Origin: Candidatus Nomurabacteria bacterium
Lineage (GTDB): Bacteria > Patescibacteriota > Minisyncoccia > Phycocordibacterales > UBA9973
Reading direction: 5' to 3'
NCBI GenBank assembly: GCA_023267375.1
Contig: JAHFNJ010000005.1
Coordinates: 1,285 to 65,284 of the forward strand
Length of the DNA stretch: 64,000 bases
Part shown: positions 4,839-59,448 of the stretch, in pieces
Position numbering within the stretch: position 1 is the stretch's first letter
Layout: each line of letters starts with the position of its first letter
Notes under the pieces: generated by a model
Told to the model about the DNA's origin: nothing
The model's database searches: none
Seen by the model: only the letters and a program-made list of their open reading frames with translations
Made by a program: the position numbers and the translations under genes

Positions 4839-5801
4839 ATGTATCGAATGAACATTACTACGTCAAATACTACTGGTGGATATATTGCCCTTATGACGGT
4901 TATTATTGTGGCGACAGTTATTTCTGCTATCAGTGTGTCGATGCTTGCAAAGGGGACAAGTAGTTCCCAAGAAAGTTTGTCCGCATTACAGTCACAGCAA
5001 TCTCTTGCCTATGCAAGTGGGTGTATCGAAGCAGTACTCCTTGATTTAAAAACTGGCTCTACAACAGCCAACCAATATTTCCCTTCAGCAGATTTGTATC
5101 CGCTCACTGGAGTAGATATTAATGCTTTAGTAACACAACCTGTGTTACTTGAAAATCCAAATGGTGATGATTGCACCTATGCACTCGATTTAACAAATTT
5201 CTCTCAATTGAATACGCTGGCAACTGGTTCGATTACGGCGACAGGTTTTTCTGGTCCCGTCTCGAGTCAGATCGTCGCGACATTTTCAGGTAATCTCGAA
5301 AGTACTGAACCGATGATTATTAGTAACCTGTCCATCACTACATGGCATGAAAAGCCATATTTAAGTTTAAGTGTTTCCGATTCAAACGATGTTTTTGCTG
5401 TTTGGGAAGAAGACTCAGGAGATGTTCGTTGTGATGATTTGTCGACTGTCTGCGCAAAAACCTACACGATCGCAAACAATGGCGACAGTACGTTGACCTA
5501 TGATGTCACTGCGGATAAAAGCTGGGTCGTATTAGGTGGTGATCCATCGACGGGGACGTTGGGTGGTGGGCAGACTGCCACGATTCAAGTTTCTATTTCA
5601 ACCGATACATTACCTGATACACTGGCAACATCACCAACGTATCCAACGACGCCGATTGCAACTGCGACAATACAATTTGGTTTTGTGAGTTATCAAAATG
5701 GTGCCGGCGCAACAACACGCACGGTCAATTTTATGGTGCCTTCCGGGGTGACTGTCGGGAAGGCTGGTGCTACCATAGAAGGACTAGTTGCTATAAGATA
5801 A
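4839..5801 (+). CDS. PilX-like minor pilin / pilus assembly protein
   Basis: 320 aa. N-terminus is ...GGYIALMTVIIVATVISAISVSMLAKGTSSSQESLSALQSQQSLAYASGCIEAVL, which resembles the PilX N-terminal domain architecture (short leader, hydrophobic helix, then conserved A/E/G-rich segment). The rest is Thr/Ser-rich. Confidence 0.45.
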   Translation: MYRMNITTSNTTGGYIALMTVIIVATVISAISVSMLAKGTSSSQESLSALQSQQSLAYASGCIEAVLLDLKTGSTTANQYFPSADLYPLTGVDINALVTQPVLLENPNGDDCTYALDLTNFSQLNTLATGSITATGFSGPVSSQIVATFSGNLESTEPMIISNLSITTWHEKPYLSLSVSDSNDVFAVWEEDSGDVRCDDLSTVCAKTYTIANNGDSTLTYDVTADKSWVVLGGDPSTGTLGGGQTATIQVSISTDTLPDTLATSPTYPTTPIATATIQFGFVSYQNGAGATTRTVNFMVPSGVTVGKAGATIEGLVAIR

Positions 5802-21760: not shown

Positions 21761-23515
21761 TTATTTTCTTTCTTTAATTTCAGCAGAGACTGTTTGTATA
21801 AATTCTTCCGTTCCCATTTCCACTTTTGTCCCGTCACGTTTTTCAATCGTCAGATTACCGGACTCGATTTCTTTATCGCCCAGAACGATGGTGTAGGGAG
21901 TTTTCATTGCCTTTGCTGCATGAATGCGCTTCCCGAGGCTATCATTTGAAGAAATAATTTCGACGCGGATGTTTGCAGTTTTTAATTTTTTTGCAATCTC
22001 TTTGGCGCCCTCATCATGATTTTCGCGTACGGGAACAATCGCAACTTGAATGGGAGCAAGCCAAGTAGGGAAGTTTCCAGCGTAGTGTTCAAGGAGAATT
22101 CCCATGAATCTATCGGGAGATCCAATAAGTGCACGGTGAATCATTACCGGTGTTTTTCGGAGTCCGTCGCTATCAGTGAACTCAAGTTCAAATCTTTTTG
22201 GTTGATTGAAATCAAGCTGAATGGTAGATATCTGCCATTCACGTCCTAGTGCGTCGACTGCCATGATGTCTATCTTTGGTCCATAAAACGCAGCTTCACC
22301 CTCTGCGTCTTTATGAGGAATTTTTTTTTCTTCTAGAAGTTTCTTCATGATTGTTTGAGATTTTTCCCATACAGCATCTTCTCCTAGATATTTTTCTTTT
22401 TTGTTCGGGTCACGCAGTGAAAGTCGCATCCAGTATTCTACGTTATAGACAGCGAGCGCTTTTTCAATTGCCTCAAGTACGTGTTCAATCTCGCTTTCGA
22501 TTTGATCCTCTCGGCAGAAAATATGTCCATCATCTTGCGAAAATGCTCGTAGGCGCGTAAGCCCAGACATTTCCCCTGGACGCTCATCGCGGTAGAGGAC
22601 TGCAAAATCAGAATAACGGATGGGAAGGTCGCGATAACTTCTTGGTTTTGATGCGTAGATCTGGGTGTGCTGTGGGCAGTTCATCGGCTTTAAGAACATT
22701 TCATCGGAAACGTATTGTGATGTTACTGAAAGCATATCTTCTTTATATTTGTCGTAATGACCAGATATTTTGAATAGTTCTCCCTTGTTTATATTTGGTG
22801 TGTGTACTTCTCCGAAACCAAGCGCATCATTTAATTCGCGAGAGAATTTTATTATTTCTTCGCGTACAATATTTCCTTTTGGCGTAAACAATGGCATTCC
22901 AACACCGACTAAATCAGAAAAAGTGAAAAGATCCATTTCTCGTCCAAGTTTTCTGTGATCTCGTTTTTTTGCTTCTTCTTGCTGGAGAATGTATGCATCG
23001 AGTTCTTCTTTGGTAGGGAACGCTAGGCCGTAGATGCGGGTGAGCATCGGATTTTTTTCATCGCCGCGCCAGTAGGCGCCGGCCACACGATCTAGTTTGA
23101 ATGAGTCGGGTGAAATTTCTTTGGCTGGATTTTCAGCGTGTCCGCCGCGACACAGATCAGTAAATCCTCCGCAGGTATAGAGAGTGATTGTTTCGCCACG
23201 ATCAGCGATTTCATTGATGAGTTCTATTTTGTATTGATTGCCACTAAAGAGTGCGAGGGCTTCATCCTTTGACACTTCCTTGTGGGTAAATTCGGTCCAC
23301 TTCGGGAGGCTTTTCTTCATGTATTTCTCGATTTTCGCCAAATCAGCGTCGCTGATCTTTTCAGTGCCGAAATCAATATCGTAGTAGAAGCCATTATCTA
23401 CAGCAGGACCCAATGTAAGGTGGGCGTTTGGGTACTGGTCTTTGACAACTTGTGCCAAAAGGTGCGCCAATGTATGGCGGACATGGGCTAGTTTTTCATC
23501 GTTCATACCGGTCAT
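21761..23515 (-). CDS. thrS: Threonine--tRNA ligase (lacks N-terminal TGS domain)
   Basis: 584 aa. Begins in the editing-domain His motif (HVRHTLAHLLAQ...CGGFTDLCRGGH), followed by the class II catalytic core and the C-terminal anticodon-binding domain (...VAIVPVRENHDEGAKEIAKKLK...). Confidence 0.85.
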   Translation of the reverse strand: MTGMNDEKLAHVRHTLAHLLAQVVKDQYPNAHLTLGPAVDNGFYYDIDFGTEKISDADLAKIEKYMKKSLPKWTEFTHKEVSKDEALALFSGNQYKIELINEIADRGETITLYTCGGFTDLCRGGHAENPAKEISPDSFKLDRVAGAYWRGDEKNPMLTRIYGLAFPTKEELDAYILQQEEAKKRDHRKLGREMDLFTFSDLVGVGMPLFTPKGNIVREEIIKFSRELNDALGFGEVHTPNINKGELFKISGHYDKYKEDMLSVTSQYVSDEMFLKPMNCPQHTQIYASKPRSYRDLPIRYSDFAVLYRDERPGEMSGLTRLRAFSQDDGHIFCREDQIESEIEHVLEAIEKALAVYNVEYWMRLSLRDPNKKEKYLGEDAVWEKSQTIMKKLLEEKKIPHKDAEGEAAFYGPKIDIMAVDALGREWQISTIQLDFNQPKRFELEFTDSDGLRKTPVMIHRALIGSPDRFMGILLEHYAGNFPTWLAPIQVAIVPVRENHDEGAKEIAKKLKTANIRVEIISSNDSLGKRIHAAKAMKTPYTIVLGDKEIESGNLTIEKRDGTKVEMGTEEFIQTVSAEIKERK

Positions 23516-23570
23516 AGTAGCATATCTCTACAGTGAAAAAAAGTTCCGTTTGTTGCAGAAAACCTTATTT

Positions 23571-23580
23571 TTGCTATACT
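23571..23580 (+). promoter_or_regulatory. Putative promoter -10 (TGcTATACT) for the tRNA-fMet transcript
   Basis: ttgcag-N16-TATACT with an extended TG. It lies 20 nt upstream of the tRNA start. Confidence 0.35.
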
Positions 23581-23600
23581 GCGTGGACGAGTTTTTACAT

Positions 23601-23672
23601 CGCGGGGAGGAGCAACGGTTGCTCGTCGGGCTCATAACCCGAAGGTAGTTGGTTCAATTCCAGCCCCCGCAA
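23601..23672 (+). tRNA. tRNA-fMet (initiator, anticodon CAU)
   Basis: Manual fold: CGCGGGG/AG/GAGC-AACGGTT-GCTC/G/TCGGG-CTCATAA-CCCGA/AGGTA/GTTGG-TTCAATT-CCAGC/CCCCGCA/A. It has the C1:A72 mismatch and three G:C pairs closing the anticodon stem, both hallmarks of the bacterial initiator. It is near-identical to E. coli tRNA-fMet. CCA is not encoded. Confidence 0.85.
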
Positions 23673-23678
23673 CAATTC

Positions 23679-23810
23679 AACAAACCGGTAGGTTTGTGAA
23701 TTTTGCGAGGGGAGTAAGCAAATTGATTTGCTTACGTCTGGAATTGAAAGACTTTTCGTTGCCGAGCTTTGCTCGGTCGAAAAGTACCTGGCTACGTGGT
23801 AGCCAATGAA
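23679..23810 (+). mobile_element. 132-bp insert flanked by a 17-bp direct repeat of the tRNA-fMet 3' end; putative small non-autonomous integrative element or remnant
   Basis: agcccccgcaacaattc occurs at 23662-23678 (tRNA 3' end) and again at 23811-27. The insert contains hairpins caaaccGGTAggtttg, gtaagcaaatTGAtttgcttac, ccgagcTTTgctcgg and ggctacGTGgtagcc. It is homologous to the insert at 59306-59412. Confidence 0.35.
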
Positions 23811-23868
23811 AGCCCCCGCAACAATTCGGCACGTGACATGCCCACTATGTCTATTTGCTGAATAATAT

Positions 23869-23942
23869 GTCGGCGTAGCTCAGGTAGTTAGAGCATGGCA
23901 CTCATAAAGCCAAGGTCGGAGGTGCAAGTCCTCCCGCCGACA
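23869..23942 (+). tRNA. tRNA with anticodon CAU (elongator Met or Ile2-lysidine)
   Basis: Manual fold: GTCGGCG/TA/GCTC-AGGTAGTTA-GAGC/A/TGGCA-CTCATAA-AGCCA/AGGTC/GGAGG-TGCAAGT-CCTCC/CGCCGAC/A. The acceptor stem is perfect. There is one A.A mismatch at the base of the anticodon stem. Confidence 0.7.
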
Positions 23943-24135
23943 CCCGTTTAGGCGGAACAAGCAAATTTATTTGCTTGTGTGAGGACTTGCAAGGCGCAGC
24001 TATACTTTGCCAGTAGGCAAAGTAGCGAGCCGGGGTCGAGAAATTTTGCGAGTGACGGCGAGCAAAATATTCGTGACCAAGTCCTAGAAATTAGAAAATT
24101 TTTCTAATTTGTGGTAGTTTAGAGAAGTTATATTT

Positions 24136-24209
24136 GCGGGCGTAGCTCAGCTGGTTAGAGCGCTCCCCTGTCACGGGAGAGGTCGTGGGTTCAAATCCCA
24201 TCGCTCGCG
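24136..24209 (+). tRNA. tRNA-Asp (anticodon GUC)
   Basis: Manual fold: GCGGGCG/TA/GCTC-AGCTGGTTA-GAGC/G/CTCCC-CTGTCAC-GGGAG/AGGTC/GTGGG-TTCAAAT-CCCAT/CGCTCGC/G. There is one G-U pair in the acceptor stem. Confidence 0.85.
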
Positions 24210-24214
24210 CAATT

Positions 24215-24241
24215 AAAAAATCCCCTTTATGGGGATTTTTT
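24215..24241 (+). terminator. Rho-independent terminator after tRNA-Asp
   Basis: aaaaaaTCCCCtttatGGGGAtttttt: stem AAATCCCC/GGGGATTT followed by a T-run. Confidence 0.7.
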
Positions 24242-24389
24242 AATGCGAGCGAAGCAAGACAACTGCTTGTCTTGCGTTGGGATTTGAACAGCGGAGCTAT
24301 GTTTTACAAGCTTGCAAAACAAGCGAGCTGGTGCCCAGACCGAGCCGAGTGGCGACGAGGCGAGAGTCGCGGGAAAATCCCATCGCTTA

Positions 24390-24433
24390 CACACATAAGA
24401 AAATTCCCATAAAAAGGAATTTTCTTATGTGTG
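24390..24433 (+). promoter_or_regulatory. Perfect 18-bp stem hairpin 35 nt upstream of the AsnB-like gene start
   Basis: CACACATAAGAAAATTCC-cataaaaa-GGAATTTTCTTATGTGTG: 18/18 complementary pairs with an 8-nt loop. No clean T-run follows, so it is more likely a regulatory or protein-binding structure than a terminator. Confidence 0.4.
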
Positions 24434-24468
24434 GTCGAAAATATTTTTTATCTGCTATAATTCTCAAC

Positions 24469-27400
24469 ATGTGTGGCATTACTGCAGTTTTCAATTCTAG
24501 TAACTCAGAATTAAAAGCCAATAAATCTCTAGAAAAAATCCAACATAGAGGAGGTAGTACTTTTGAGCTGGAAACATTTCCAAACGCAACTATCGGCGCT
24601 AATCGTTTGCCTATAGTTGGAAGACTCTCTGGAAAGCAACCTCTCCATAATGAAGACAAGACTATTTTTGCAGTTCAGAATGGTGAAATTTTTAATCATA
24701 AAGAATTACGTGCTGAACTTGAAAAACTGAATCATGTTTTTTCATCTGAATCAGATACAGAGGTTCTCGTGCATGCGTACGAAGAATGGGGATCTGAAAT
24801 GGTATATAAGCTGGATTCGGAGATGTATGCATTTATTGTATACAACACAAAAACTAAAGATATCTTCGCCGCTCGTGATCCACTTGGAGTAAAACCTTTT
24901 TATTACACAAAAACTAAAGATGGAGAAATATTATTTGCTTCAGAGTTGAAGCAGCTAGTGCAATTTGAAAACGTAACTACAGTGAATGAATTTCCACAAG
25001 GTAGCTATTACTTCAATGGAAAATTCACTAAATACTTTAAAATAGAAGATCCAAAAACGAAGCTTTCCGAAACTTCCGCTATTCGTTTGCTTGAAAAAAA
25101 TATTGTTGAGGCAGTGAGAAAACGAGTAGATACAGATTTACCTATCGGTGTCTTTTTAAGTGGAGGAGTTGACAGCTCTCTTGTTATGGAAATCGCGACG
25201 CGTTTTCATCCGGATGTCACTGCTATTATTTTAGGAAATACCGGTTCTTCGGATTATGAATTTGCTCTACGTCTCTGTAAGGACCGTGGATACAAATATC
25301 AGATAGTATCTCCAAATATCGACTATAAACAAGAGCTTGATGAGGTACTCTATTACCTGGAAACATATGAGCCATTGGTGATTCGGCAAGGATTTGCCAA
25401 CTGGATTTGTTCTCGTGAAGCACAGAAGCTCGGCTTGAGCATTGTTCTTGTTGGCGAAGGAGCTGATGAATTGTTTGCTGGATACAATGAGTTTTCTGCT
25501 CTGTCAGATAATAATATAAATAAGGGGTGTAAAATGCTTACTGAAAATCTTGGCAAAGGCCATCTCAAGCGAGTTGATCGTGGGGCGATGCGTTTTACCG
25601 TAGAAGTAAGATCTCCCTTGTTAGATACCAAAGTCATTGATACCGCGTTTAAAATCAAAGGAGATTTAAAAATTAAAAAAGAAAATCATCGTGTTACTAC
25701 AAAATATATTCTTCGCAAGGTGGCTGAAAACTTTCTACCAGACTACATTGCATGGCGCTATAAGATGCCTTTTGCTAATGGAGCCGGAATGAATGTGGGT
25801 TATAACTATAAATCTGGCGATGGTGCGCTTGGAGAAATAACTAAATCATACAAGACTACAATTGATTCAAAAACCGCAAAAGAATTTAAACTCGAAACCC
25901 CAGAAGAGAATTATTACTTCCAAAAGTTTAAGGAATTTGGCTACGCAAAGCTTGCCGAAGCAAAGGACCGAATAATAGTAAAAGACATTCTACAAACCCT
26001 CAATACCTCAAAAAAGCAGAGGATTGTTGTGGCAGAGTTCGGAAAGTTAGCTCTTTATTTTCCTGTATATTTAGCTGCACAAAAGAAAATTTTTGATATG
26101 CATGAGTTGGAGGTTGATTTCATTGCAACTGGTGGCGACGATAAAACATACGCGACCCTGTTGAACAATTCAGGACAAATAGGTCTTTCTGACCCTCTAT
26201 TCGCAATGTTTGAAGACGGAATAAACATGAATGGATACGGTGAAATAATTGGAGAGTTGGTTCACTCAACTCCAATTGTTGCAGTAACACTTAACCCAAA
26301 GATTACTATCAATTCACTTCAGGATTTTTCTCAATATAAGGTTGGATCTTTTCAAAAATACTCCACGACAAACACCGTAGCTTCGTATCTTTTGAAAAAC
26401 CAAAACATTTCTGCCTATGACTTTAAAGAGTTTCCAAGCAAGCTAGTTGATAGAGAGATCGATATCGCCGTAGTACTGCTTGAACAAGCACTTAATATCG
26501 AAGCATTAGGTGGCAGAATCGTACACGATTTTAGAAACGATATGTCTCAATACCTATTTTCTGGTTTTACAATTGCTTCGACGTTACCTAAAAATGTAAG
26601 GGGTAAACTTCCTAGTTTCACTTCAGCTATTAAAGAAGCTTTGAAGTACATCAAATTCAATCAAGCAGATGCTGTTGCTGAATTTAGAGCATTGTTCCCA
26701 GAGTTGATAAACCCAGAAAAAGTATTACTTGAATACCAAAAGTTTTGGGTCCAGAGTCTTAAAATCAACAGAGAAGACTATCTCAAGTCGCACACTACGT
26801 GGAAAAGCTTGTACCCAAACATACTTAAGAATCATGACCTCCCTTACTACCGAAGTTATTCAGACGCAGATAAAATCCTAGATACGATAAATGCCCGGGC
26901 AATTCGTAGAGAATATCCATATCGTGAAGATAAGCTTATTGAACTAATAAATAAAAAAATCAGCACAAAAGAACCACTTACTTTTTTTGGTTTTTGGGGT
27001 GCAGGACCAAAAAAAGATACGGATGATCGCGATAAACGAACCTTGGACTATCTCGCTCAGTACATCTCGAACTTAAACAAAGTATATAAAAATGGAGTTT
27101 CTGTGACTTTTATATTAGCGGACAAGCATGCTGAAAATAACGAGTACGACAAATCAAATATTGGCCCATACATTCAACAAGTAAAACAAGAGATGGCAAA
27201 TCGTGGGTTTAAAACGGTTTTACTGTCCGATATCTGGAAAAAATATGACCTTACCCGCGATAAAGTTGTTTCCACACTTAATTCCAAGCCAAAAGGATGG
27301 TGGCAGAAGATTTCCATTGCAAAAAAACTAGAAGAGAAATCCAATGAATATTTCAATGGAGCTGACAAGTTACTTGGTGCACAGCGCTATTATGTATTAA

Positions 27401-59012: not shown

Positions 59013-59085
59013 GCCGTTGTAGCTCAGTTGGTAGAGCACGTCATTGGTAATGACGAGGTCTCCGGTTCAATCCCGGACAACGGCT
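59013..59085 (+). tRNA. tRNA-Thr (anticodon GGU)
   Basis: Manual fold: GCCGTTG/TA/GCTC-AGTTGGTA-GAGC/A/CGTCA-TTGGTAA-TGACG/AGGTC/TCCGG-TTCAATC-CCGGA/CAACGGC/T. All stems are perfect. Confidence 0.85.
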
Positions 59086-59231
59086 CTAGAGAACCTGTTC
59101 TTTTGAATAGAATAATGATATGGACGTTTGTTTCGGATTCAACCACACTATTCAAATACAATCCGTTTCAAATTAATTTGTCCAGCTTTCCATCTTTTCA
59201 ACCCCGTAAGGTTGTACCGGAAAGCCTTTTT

Positions 59232-59304
59232 GCCACCTTAGCTCAGTTGGTAGAGCACGTCTTTCGTAAAGACGGGGTCCGCAGTTCGATCCTGCGAGGT
59301 GGCT
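59232..59304 (+). tRNA. tRNA-Thr (anticodon CGU)
   Basis: Manual fold: GCCACCT/TA/GCTC-AGTTGGTA-GAGC/A/CGTCT-TTCGTAA-AGACG/GGGTC/CGCAG-TTCGATC-CTGCG/AGGTGGC/T. Confidence 0.85.
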
Positions 59305-59305
59305 C

Positions 59306-59412
59306 ACGAAGTGAGGTAGCTCAGTTCGCAACCTGCGTTGCGAACGGCAGGATCGAAAGACTTTTCCGTACAAGCGAAGCGAGGTGGAAAAGTACCTGGC
59401 TATGTAATAGCC
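59306..59412 (+). mobile_element. 107-bp insert flanked by an 18-bp direct repeat of the tRNA-Thr(CGU) 3' end; homolog of the element after tRNA-fMet
   Basis: gatcctgcgaggtggctc occurs at 59288-59305 (inside the tRNA) and again at 59413-59430. The insert shares gaaagactttTC...GAAAAGTACCTGGCTAyGTrrTAGCC with the 23679-23810 insert, including a covarying hairpin (ggctatGTAatagcc vs ggctacGTGgtagcc). It also contains a tRNA-like fragment, GGTAGCTCAGTT...GGATCGAAAG. Confidence 0.35.
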
Positions 59413-59448
59413 GATCCTGCGAGGTGGCTCCAAATATCCACATTTTCT

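Follow-up and report, generated by a model that had tools for sequence, protein, structure and literature searches.

In the genome of a Candidatus Nomurabacteria bacterium, a gene for initiator tRNA (tRNA-fMet) is followed by a short, folded insert that ends in a second copy of the tRNA's own 3' end. The locus lies on contig JAHFNJ010000005.1 (assembly GCA_023267375.1) and was analysed within a stretch of 64,000 nucleotides (64 kb), referred to below as the window. The tRNA(CAU) gene is intact (ARAGORN; 54.1 bits against the Rfam tRNA model) and carries two hallmarks of initiators, a C1-A72 mismatch in the Rfam alignment and an anticodon stem of three G-C pairs (GGG/CCC) read from the sequence. 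No CCA is encoded; the discriminator A73 at 23672 is followed by CA. An earlier note on this DNA had reported an exact 17-bp direct copy of the tRNA-fMet 3' end, 149 bp downstream, with four hairpins between the repeats, and both observations hold. The 17-mer AGCCCCCGCAACAATTC occurs exactly twice in the window, at 23662-23678 and 23811-23827, with 149 bp from start to start and 132 bp between the copies; 0.01 matches with two or fewer mismatches are expected by chance, and two matches appeared in 0 of 100 shuffles. From the T-loop onward the repeat extends imperfectly to 24 nucleotides (nt), 21/24 of them identical (CAATTCCAGC... versus CAATGAAAGC...). All four hairpins are present, at 23681-96, 23714-35, 23762-76 (within 23750-87) and 23790-804. 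The sole open reading frame (ORF) of the 132-bp insert is a spurious antisense ORF of 51 amino acids (aa), and the neighbouring genes encode threonyl-tRNA synthetase (ThrRS) and an asnB-like protein.

The insert also holds two segments that had not been noted before. One, CTGGAATTGAA (23738-48), is complementary to the T-arm of the insert's own tRNA, and the other, GAATTTTGCGAGGGG (23698-712), is complementary to the acceptor 3' strand and trailer of tRNA-fMet. We refer to these two segments as the 5' or antisense arm, to the downstream tRNA copy as the 3' arm, and to the whole as a module. The parts of the fMet module and its tRNA are as follows.

23601-23672, + strand: initiator tRNA(CAU) gene, intact (the ARAGORN and Rfam calls end at 23672/3)
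23662-23678, + strand: first copy of the direct repeat (DR1), which spans the T-stem 3' strand (its last 3 nt), the acceptor 3' strand (7 nt), A73 and the trailer (6 nt)
23681-23696, + strand: spacer hairpin CAAACC-GGTA-GGTTTG between tRNA-fMet and the module (sequence and fold)
23698-23712, + strand: 5' arm part 1, GAATTTTGCGAGGGG, antisense to CCCCCGCAACAATTC (acceptor 3' strand, A73, trailer) except for a bulged A (minimum free energy, MFE, fold)
23714-23735, + strand: hairpin 1 (GTAAGCAAAT-TG-ATTTGCTTAC), which divides the antisense arm in two (repeat analysis and fold)
23738-23748, + strand: 5' arm part 2 (anti-T), CTGGAATTGAA, the exact complement of TTCAATTCCAG, which is the T-loop and T-stem 3' strand at 23653-63
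23746-23750, + strand: junction GAAAG ahead of hairpin 2
23750-23787, + strand: hairpin 2 of a three-way junction, with a conserved outer stem (GACUUUUC/GAAAAGUAC) and a variable inner hairpin
23790-23804, + strand: hairpin 3, GGCTAC-GTG-GTAGCC, with a triloop (fold and family covariation)
23805-23827, + strand: 3' arm (DR2), a copy of tRNA positions 57-73 plus trailer, including the exact 17-mer at 23811-27

The 157-nt fMet insert folds at -65.6 kcal/mol (z = -6.6 against shuffles). Its 3' arm is altered at three nucleotides, T60-C61-C62, which have become GAA, and the sequence on the left flank of the downstream repeat is hairpin 3 (...GCC), not a half-site made of T-stem and T-loop. Modules of the same kind, likewise unnoted before, stand behind the next two tRNA genes and behind tRNA-Thr(CGU) at 59232.

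A family of modules behind tRNA and tmRNA genes

The fMet insert is not a one-off integration scar: it is a member of a large family with more than 100 copies in metagenome contigs. The family was collected in one metagenome scan with the exact pattern GACTTTTC-N15-35-GAAAAGTACCTGG (21 bases), which gave at least 120 loci on contigs without taxonomic assignment; the conservation of the 21 pattern bases is thus ascertained by the search rather than measured. About 110 of these listed loci show the full architecture, and roughly ten are chance matches. A profile hidden Markov model (HMM) finds 125 copies among the metagenome loci listed. In the window it finds two copies of the type sought (type 1), one of them the fMet module, with all defining parts located (nhmmer E = 3.6e-21, 75 bits), and gives weak matches on hairpin 1 and the anti-T segment of two copies with a second type of core (type 2); it finds no copy away from tRNAs in the 64 kb. 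At least 11 metagenome loci that had not been chosen for type 2 contain such copies too.

The elements are about 110-190 nt long and are attached on the 3' side of tRNA genes or of genes for transfer-messenger RNA (tmRNA). A tRNA gene on the same strand lies less than 400 nt upstream of 87 of the 126 pattern hits, with 31 anticodons represented among the matches listed, and several of the remaining hits sit downstream of tmRNA genes (L099, L117, L124, L125, L166, L196 and L203, where L numbers denote individual loci). The arms of the tmRNA-linked modules match the tmRNA T-arm and acceptor 3' end; for example, the 5' arm TGGAGATG complements CATCTCCA. The repeat typically starts 19 nt before the tRNA 3' end called by ARAGORN, which places it at T-loop position 56/57, and stops within 2 nt of that end. 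In control regions upstream, an antisense match was found in 0 of 150 cases and a repeat match in 2 of 150. Two tRNA genes outside the module family, a tRNA-Leu in a Peribacteria metagenome-assembled genome (MAG; L054:6345) and a tRNA-Ser in a Bacteroidota MAG (L072:8446), have 15-16-nt copies of their 3' part within 260 nt downstream, which may be ordinary duplications of the attachment-site (att) type.

We next consider how regularly tRNA genes are occupied, counting tRNA genes in module-bearing contigs with at least 250 nt of downstream sequence. Type 1 modules follow 91 of these genes, type 2 modules follow 9, and 63 have none, so that about 60% of the tRNAs in module-bearing contigs have a module; a single anticodon can show all three states. 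The earlier note had considered its idea refuted if the repeat occurred nowhere else and no empty sites existed. Instead, more than 100 copies lie elsewhere, and the same tRNA species is seen with and without a module. Copies also occur in tandem (L102/L131, L130 and L121), and L167 duplicates a 237-nt unit that includes part of the tmRNA gene. As regards module similarity within and between genomes, only two within-contig pairs are available. Two loci with tRNA-Lys(UUU), L103 and L192, share about 78% identity to the left of the tRNA gene; across the tRNA, the module and at least the next 400 nt, identity is about 100%. This jump in identity, exactly at the tRNA gene, marks a boundary of recombination or transfer.

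The slot between tRNA and module holds nothing, a terminator hairpin, or 0.65-1.6 kb of genes. In L145, L151 and L198, the tRNA lies 0.65-1.6 kb upstream of its cognate module, with unrelated ORFs in the gap. No protein is common to these gaps; one of the ORFs has an NYN domain and one has no Pfam hit. A conserved motif, GGTTCTAAC-N17/18-CACA, stands at the right end of the gaps (L145:~690-720; L151, minus strand, ~1940-1970; L198:~4885-4915) and is also found in L098, L120, L130 and L202. Rfam has no match to the GGTTCTAAC motif, which may be a separate element that enters between tRNA and module.

From 101 copies we built a type 1 consensus, defined by GAAAGACUUUUC...GAAAAGUACCUGG plus a triloop hairpin, by hairpin 1, and by antisense and sense arms that match the upstream tRNA. 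Read from the tRNA onward, a type 1 module consists of a spacer, 5' arm part 1 ((U)UG + N + 7 nt), an A, hairpin 1 (a 9-bp stem with a loop that is mostly CUGC), GU, and 5' arm part 2 (5 nt followed by an AAUCGAA-like sequence). There follow the junction (C)GAAAG, hairpin 2 (outer stem ACUUUUC/GAAAAGU, interior variable), ACC, hairpin 3 (GGCUAU-GUA-AUAGCC) and the 3' arm. The spacer may be empty, a hairpin, or a hairpin with a T-run; a T-run, often terminator-like, is found in 48/86 modules. The position of hairpin 1 is constant, at the 65/66 junction of the antisense arm. In about one quarter of type 1 modules (e.g. L088, L141, L168, L185 and L207), the 3' arm has a 14-nt mini-hairpin, AAGCGUACUCGCGG, inserted behind position 59. 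This mini-hairpin marks a sub-class and has a UACU loop on a covarying stem (GCG/CGC, GUG/CAC, AUG/CAU).

The stems of the consensus evolve as RNA stems. Over hairpins 1-3 and the helix between anti-T and 3' arm, 91.8% of cells are paired, compared with 77.2% in shuffles, and the covariation score is 0.415, compared with 0.144 in shuffles (0/500 of which reach 0.415) and 0.07-0.10 in controls with slid partners. In hairpin 1, each of the nine pairs shows double changes across the family. The invariance of hairpin 2's outer stem follows from the search pattern, which demanded it; the pair adjoining this stem covaries (CG 50, GC 24, UA 21), as do pairs 176-184 (UA 73, GC 20) and 178-182 (UA 47, UG 28, CG 23) of hairpin 3. 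Among related modules, 188 stem changes preserve structure (123 compensatory and 65 via G-U), compared with 37 that break a pair. Since U-G pairs become C-A mismatches on the opposite strand, the structure is selected in RNA of the tRNA sense; a minus-strand gene is ruled out on the same ground, by the U-G pairs at 178-182. The suggestion in the earlier note that the insert forms a structured RNA is thus borne out, with covariation across copies above that of shuffles.

This shared core bears directly on the most familiar explanation for a tRNA 3'-end duplication, namely that a prophage or island with a tyrosine integrase entered the tRNA 3' end and was later reduced to a 132-bp stub. tRNA and tmRNA genes are the usual targets of integrase islands and prophages. 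Genomic islands are documented to use the tmRNA gene (PMC11915505). The direct repeat from the T-loop to the tRNA end, with identity stopping near that end, is what such an event leaves, and the few loci with 0.65-1.6 kb between tRNA and module also speak for it. We nonetheless regard a classical integrase scar as highly improbable. More than 100 independent copies keep a core of about 110 nt with compensatory changes and one covarying structure, which independent deletions could not produce; the "decayed island stub" of the earlier note is therefore not supported. Its reading of the repeats as a classic attL/attR pair fares no better: the insert has no integrase or other ORF of its own, no integrase lies next to it or among the spacer genes examined (the ORFs of L151 and L198 have no recombinase domain), hairpin 3 replaces the expected T-stem half-site to the left of the downstream repeat, the antisense 5' arm is foreign to att sites, and no module was found in 2.9 million viral contigs of IMG/VR, where the matches were due to chance or lay in coding sequence.

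Arms written in the sequence of the preceding tRNA

While the core is constant, the arms change with the tRNA. To describe this we used 70 non-redundant modules whose adjacent tRNA could be parsed. Hairpin 1 splits the 5' arm, which is antisense to tRNA positions 54-76 and the first bases of the trailer; the 3' arm directly copies positions 57-73. The anti-T segment complements the T-stem 3' strand at 5/5 positions in 46/70 modules and at 4/5 in 19 more, and T-loop positions 57-60 are complemented at 4/4 in 59/70. Part 1 of the 5' arm complements the acceptor 3' strand at 7/7 positions in 35/70 and at five or more of seven in 58/70. At sites where the tRNA itself has a G-U pair or mismatch, the arm complements the 3' strand in 20 cases and copies the 5' strand in 3 (T-stem 9:3, acceptor 11:0). 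The 3' arm agrees with tRNA positions 57-73 at 17/17 in 31 modules, at 15-16 in 22, at 12-14 in 12, and at fewer in 5.

Complementarity runs past N73 into four trailer bases (N73-CA-N-N) in 32-38 of 44 modules, and not into CCA. Because the arm complements the genomic trailer, it matches the gene or the precursor rather than mature tRNA, and reverse transcription of the arms from mature tRNA is ruled out on this ground. N73-CA also follows the 3' arm in 33/56 modules, as it follows tRNAs. N73-CA, rather than CCA or unrelated sequence, follows the discriminator in 125/154 tRNA genes of L088-L207, with or without a module, and in the window at 23673-74, 24210-11 and 59305-06; it could be a 3'-processing signal or a partial CCA.

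The two arms appear to follow the tRNA separately. Where the 3' arm has diverged from the tRNA, the antisense arm still complements the tRNA, by 27:0 in the T region and 16:4 in the acceptor. The antisense arm thus follows the tRNA and not the altered 3' arm, which indicates that the arms behave as two independent tRNA copies that do not compensate for one another. Pairing of the antisense arm to the real tRNA amounts to 95.6% (92.7% Watson-Crick and 2.9% G-U), compared with 87% and 4%, respectively, to the 3' arm.

This independence is one of the features that replication errors could produce. On such an account, template switching, quasipalindrome correction and slippage would keep functionless arms matched to the tRNA, and the core would be an unrelated structured spacer. 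The arms are indeed short repeats, one inverted and one direct, no more than about 150 bp from the tRNA, neither compensates for the other, and tandem duplications such as the 237-nt unit of L167 exist. Replication errors leave unexplained, however, why a covarying core of common origin stands behind more than 30 tRNAs, and why the repeat boundaries (56/57, N73) and the site of hairpin 1 (65/66) are fixed. We therefore consider it very unlikely that the arms are a replication by-product.

We also asked what the arms would do in a transcript. The folds described here are nearest-neighbour thermodynamic predictions, which ignore tRNA tertiary structure and co-transcriptional order. A module on its own is predicted to pair its 3' arm twice, with 5' arm part 1 in an acceptor-like helix and with the anti-T segment in a T-like helix; hairpin 1 forms as well, and the junction of hairpins 2 and 3 takes the place of the T-loop. 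In the fMet module, the T-like helix is lost because T60-C61-C62 of the 3' arm became GAA. When tRNA and module are folded as one transcript, the predicted MFE structure is swapped: the 5' acceptor strand pairs with the downstream copy, and tRNA positions 54-76 pair with the antisense arm. The swapped fold of the fMet transcript has -108.1 kcal/mol (z = -8.8), and swapping is the MFE solution in 27/27 transcripts with perfect repeats, by 1.4-13 kcal/mol over two separate domains. In this fold the module is nested in the T-loop at 56/57, much as an intron would be. The predictions show that the two copies of the tRNA 3' part would be interchangeable by design. The functional tRNA must rely on the upstream copy, because defects are frequent in the downstream one. 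A spliced T-loop intron with the downstream copy as the real 3' exon was rejected as the main route because this copy is often mutated or carries the 14-nt insertion; in the fMet module, the change at T60-C61-C62 breaks the T-stem.

Another possibility is that the module serves its host, as a native or domesticated, tRNA-specific 3'-trailer device in the processing of pre-tRNAs and read-through transcripts, in quality control, or in regulating tRNA output. In this model, the antisense arm would clamp precursor positions 54-76 and the trailer, with the 3' arm as a decoy copy. The transcript would toggle between a tRNA plus a tRNA-like minihelix, which RNase P and RNase Z-type enzymes could cut, and the strand-swapped form, and the conserved junction would bind a protein. 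Several observations are consistent with this model. The fMet module lies among co-oriented fMet, Met and Asp genes that are too close for obvious internal promoters, so transcription probably runs through it, and production of the downstream tRNAs requires its removal. Covariation is strong and the G-U pairs are specific to the tRNA sense; pairing of the antisense arm with the real tRNA (95.6%) equals that within the core hairpins and exceeds its pairing with the 3' arm; and the predicted swapped MFE in all 27 perfect-repeat transcripts and in the fMet copy makes alternative pairing a built-in property. N73-CA after the 3' arm (33/56), as after tRNAs, and the similarity of orthologous modules, with three-way covariation, point in the same direction. 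On the other hand, only about 60% of tRNAs in module-bearing contigs are occupied and the same species is often empty, a T-run or terminator-like spacer separates tRNA from module in 48/86, and the 3' arm is often degenerate or interrupted, with mismatches uncompensated. Moreover, a processing signal needs no tRNA-specific arms, and a constant core behind more than 30 tRNAs still demands a mechanism of spreading. We see a host device as a serious rival to the reading that we prefer, possible if somewhat doubtful.

Other modules and neighbouring genes in the window

Besides the fMet module, the window holds a second type 1 module, behind tRNA-Thr(CGU), and two modules of type 2, behind elongator tRNA-Met and tRNA-Asp. 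The fMet, Met and Asp tRNA genes are consecutive, and repeat analysis of 23400-24400 shows each of them trailed by one shared set of parts: a related long hairpin, a complement of the tRNA's own T-loop and T-stem, and then a copy of its own T-loop and 3' end. Type 2 modules have arms and a hairpin 1 like those of type 1, and a larger core. All three loci are on the same strand as the fMet module.

23869-24135, + strand: elongator tRNA-Met (23869-23942) and type 2 module, with hairpin 1 (23957-78), anti-T GAGGACTTGCA (23981-91), the larger core, and a partial T copy CAAGTCCT (24078-85)
24136-24400, + strand: tRNA-Asp (24136-24209), a terminator-like hairpin (24212-44) and type 2 module, with 5' arm GCGAGCG (24245-51), hairpin 1 (24254-75), anti-T GCGTTGGGATTTGAAC (24274-89), the core, and 3' arm AAATCCCATCGCT (24375-87)
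59232-59429, + strand: tRNA-Thr(CGU) (59232-59304) and type 1 module, with hairpin 1 (59324-45), anti-T GCAGGATCGAA (59347-57), hairpin 2 (59359-96), hairpin 3 (59398-412) and the 3' arm

The core of the Thr(CGU) module is almost identical to that of the fMet module (GAAAGACTTTTC...GAAAAGTACCTGGCTAYGTRRTAGCC), and its 3' arm, GATCCTGCGAGGTGGCT (59413-29), is an exact copy of tRNA positions 57-73. At 59013-59231, 146 nt upstream of tRNA-Thr(CGU), tRNA-Thr(GGU) has no detectable module. Thus, occupied and unoccupied tRNA genes can be adjacent within one genome.

Directly past the Asp module, a perfect 20-bp hairpin (ACACATAAGAAAATTCC...GGAATTTTCTTATGTGT, 24389-24436) lies just upstream of the asnB-like ORF and is not followed by a T-run. 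Past the tRNA cluster, the next gene (24277/24470-27561) encodes an unusually long protein of about 1044 aa, with an N-terminal part of glutamine amidotransferase and asparagine synthase and a large C-terminal extension with only a faint NMT1-like match. The ThrRS beside the locus is closest to homologues from Candidatus Paceibacterota and other Patescibacteria, at 67% identity among GTDB species genomes and 80% in a larger protein collection. The host is a bacterium of the Paceibacterota. No tRNAs were found beside ThrRS in 80 GTDB loci or in five closer relatives (ThrRS 76-80% identical), so synteny is not conserved. An exact-protein look-up retrieved only L081, an ENA contig identical to the window.

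Proposed insertion at the T-loop and comparison with known systems

Our preferred reading, to which we give a probability of roughly 0.4, is that the modules are non-autonomous, RNA-structured insertion elements that enter tRNA genes at T-loop position 56/57 and bring a replacement tRNA 3' end. Topologically, such an element would be an insertion into the T-loop that carries its own copy of positions 57-73. Because of this replacement copy the tRNA would remain intact, and the old or duplicated 3' end would stay behind as the downstream repeat. The earlier note had read the repeat as a sign of integration into a tRNA 3' end and had judged the insert too small to encode an integrase. The repeat geometry does fit insertion into the part from T-loop to 3' end with the tRNA kept intact, and the insert is indeed too small for autonomy. 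An element of this kind would move from tRNA gene to tRNA gene in dependence on trans-acting machinery. Its arms could supply target matching, through homology to the tRNA gene or precursor, and together would form a minihelix resembling the acceptor and T-arm, with the conserved junction in place of the T-loop. The core might be recognised by the machinery or act through the RNA's own chemistry, and propagation would depend on the element's RNA structure.

Several observations argue for this reading. One core, constant behind more than 30 tRNA-like genes while the arms differ to suit each gene, requires some process by which the core is copied to further genes and given fitting arms. An insertion element with a replacement 3' end would also account for the patchy occupancy, the spacer that varies, the boundaries fixed at 56/57 and N73, and arms that drift independently. 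The tandem copies, the 0.65-1.6 kb gaps of L145, L151 and L198, the identity jump between L103 and L192 and the selection on the RNA core point the same way. The anatomy, the family, the matching to tRNAs, the covariation, the strand, the patchy occupancy and the predicted swapped fold are observed; from these we infer spread by insertion, a targeting role for the arms, and a need for transcription.

A number of observations weigh against an insertion element. Among the metagenome loci, no orthologous pair with one filled and one empty site was found; flank BLAST gave partners that were identical or bore a module. No recombinase, reverse transcriptase or nuclease is consistently nearby, the spacer genes being unrelated between loci, and no copies were found in the viral contigs of IMG/VR. 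We know of no mechanism that writes sense and antisense copies of a target into an element, and retargeting to more than 30 tRNAs by mutation alone would be hard. Modules of the same tRNA on different contigs are more alike than random pairs (0.57 compared with 0.47). Among same-anticodon modules that share the ancestry of their variable stem, differences in tRNA positions 57-72 are mirrored in the antisense arm in 12/21 cases and in the 3' arm in 14/21, and several of the 21 are clean three-way covariations of tRNA, antisense arm and 3' arm. The orthologous similarity, the three-way covariation and the compensatory evolution of the stems fit long residence in the host under selection at least as well as they fit insertion. 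The insertion-element and host readings are compatible, as a domesticated element would satisfy both.

Database searches returned no known counterpart. With Rfam 15, only tRNA and tmRNA models matched, whether in 23000-24800 of the window at E <=10, in 20 loci at gathering thresholds, or in 6 loci at E <=0.01. From the tRNA-like clan CL00001, only the three tRNAs match and nothing does in 23674-23827, where ARAGORN calls no gene either. A full-text literature search, which included the conserved sequence strings, found no description of the element in the papers covered. We rate the family as a new kind of element, since each known system compared with it fails at least one of the defining features tested, as set out below.

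Integrase islands in tRNA and tmRNA genes share with the module a target from T-loop to 3' end, restoration of the gene by a replacement copy, and a repeat that ends at the tRNA end. The module differs in its length of 110-190 nt, its covarying RNA core and antisense arm, and the absence of an integrase, a T-stem half-site and viral copies. Miniature inverted-repeat and cut-and-paste transposons have terminal inverted repeats of their own and make a short target duplication of fixed length at varied sites; the module has no constant termini, and its inverted and direct repeats copy the target tRNA and differ per copy. As for IS110-type bridge RNAs and other guide RNAs encoded by transposons, no recombinase or nuclease gene lies near the module, and its two arms, fully complementary to each other, are predicted to form helices rather than loop guides.

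Group I introns are common in tRNA genes of Patescibacteria, where the sites are at position 35/36 (PMC13011429), and occupy T-loop sites of tmRNA (PMC11915505). They resemble the module as structured RNAs within tRNA-like genes of the same phylum, with a T-loop insertion point, guide-like pairing to exons, and a nesting like that of the swapped fold. In the module, by contrast, a complete tRNA precedes, the core of about 75 nt is far below group I size, and the downstream copy is often defective. Intron_gpI (RF00028) gave no hit at E <=10 in 23000-24800 and none in 26 related loci. Rfam self-cleaving ribozymes (hammerhead, twister, pistol, hatchet and those like hepatitis delta virus) likewise gave no hit at E <=10 in 23000-24800, and the module junction, read from the sequence, has no CUGAUGA box of hammerheads.

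Other systems resemble one of the arms or the minihelix. Plant mitochondrial t-elements are tRNA-like processing elements, and so is mascRNA of MALAT1 (PMC8457004). Like the module, both provide a minihelix resembling acceptor and T-arm downstream of another RNA, potentially cut by tRNA-end enzymes. Unlike it, they show no match to a neighbouring tRNA, their T-loop is normal and they lack an antisense arm; in the module, moreover, the acceptor-like helix continues across N73 into the trailer. Primer-binding sites of retroviruses and long terminal repeat elements complement the 3' end of a specific tRNA, and there are self-priming elements of the Tf1 type. The module has a comparable complement of about 18-22 nt that reaches into the T-loop and, as in self-priming, a sense/antisense helix within one RNA. 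It differs in that the complement is to the gene or precursor (N73-CA and trailer) rather than to CCA and is split by hairpin 1; no reverse transcriptase ORF was found near the fMet locus. Finally, attenuators and T-box antiterminators also switch between exclusive folds, as would be expected here from the predicted pairing of the antisense arm with either tRNA positions 54-76 or the 3' arm. In contrast to them, the module has no expression platform, no commonly regulated gene, no T-box or leader motif and no Rfam hit.

A more speculative view, which we hold to be rather unlikely, is that of a programmable RNA device whose constant core carries two exchangeable arms that read a 20-nt address at the 3' end of any tRNA-like gene, either as a self-inserting element or as a new layer of tRNA biogenesis. 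The first form would amount to RNA-guided and possibly ribozyme-assisted self-insertion through T-loop position 56/57, with a spare tRNA 3' end supplied. In the second, tRNA genes of the Candidate Phyla Radiation (CPR) would encode their own antisense clamp and decoy, and strand swapping would decide the fate of the precursor.

Much of bacterial diversity belongs to the CPR bacteria, or Patescibacteria, whose genomes are minimal. In the contigs examined here, many of the tRNA and tmRNA genes carry an extra folded RNA of 110-190 nt that is matched to the preceding gene. These modules account for tRNA 3'-end duplications that finders of genomic islands would misread as att sites. If the module is a mobile element, as we favour, it would represent a new way of targeting tRNA genes, with a constant core and target-specific arms, in which the insertion address is encoded in the element and the essential gene is spared. 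If it is a host device, it would provide tRNA-specific control or processing by cis-encoded mimics of the tRNA. Either way, the modules form a well-defined RNA family of hundreds of sequences, with a clear consensus and covariation, ready for models of the Rfam type.

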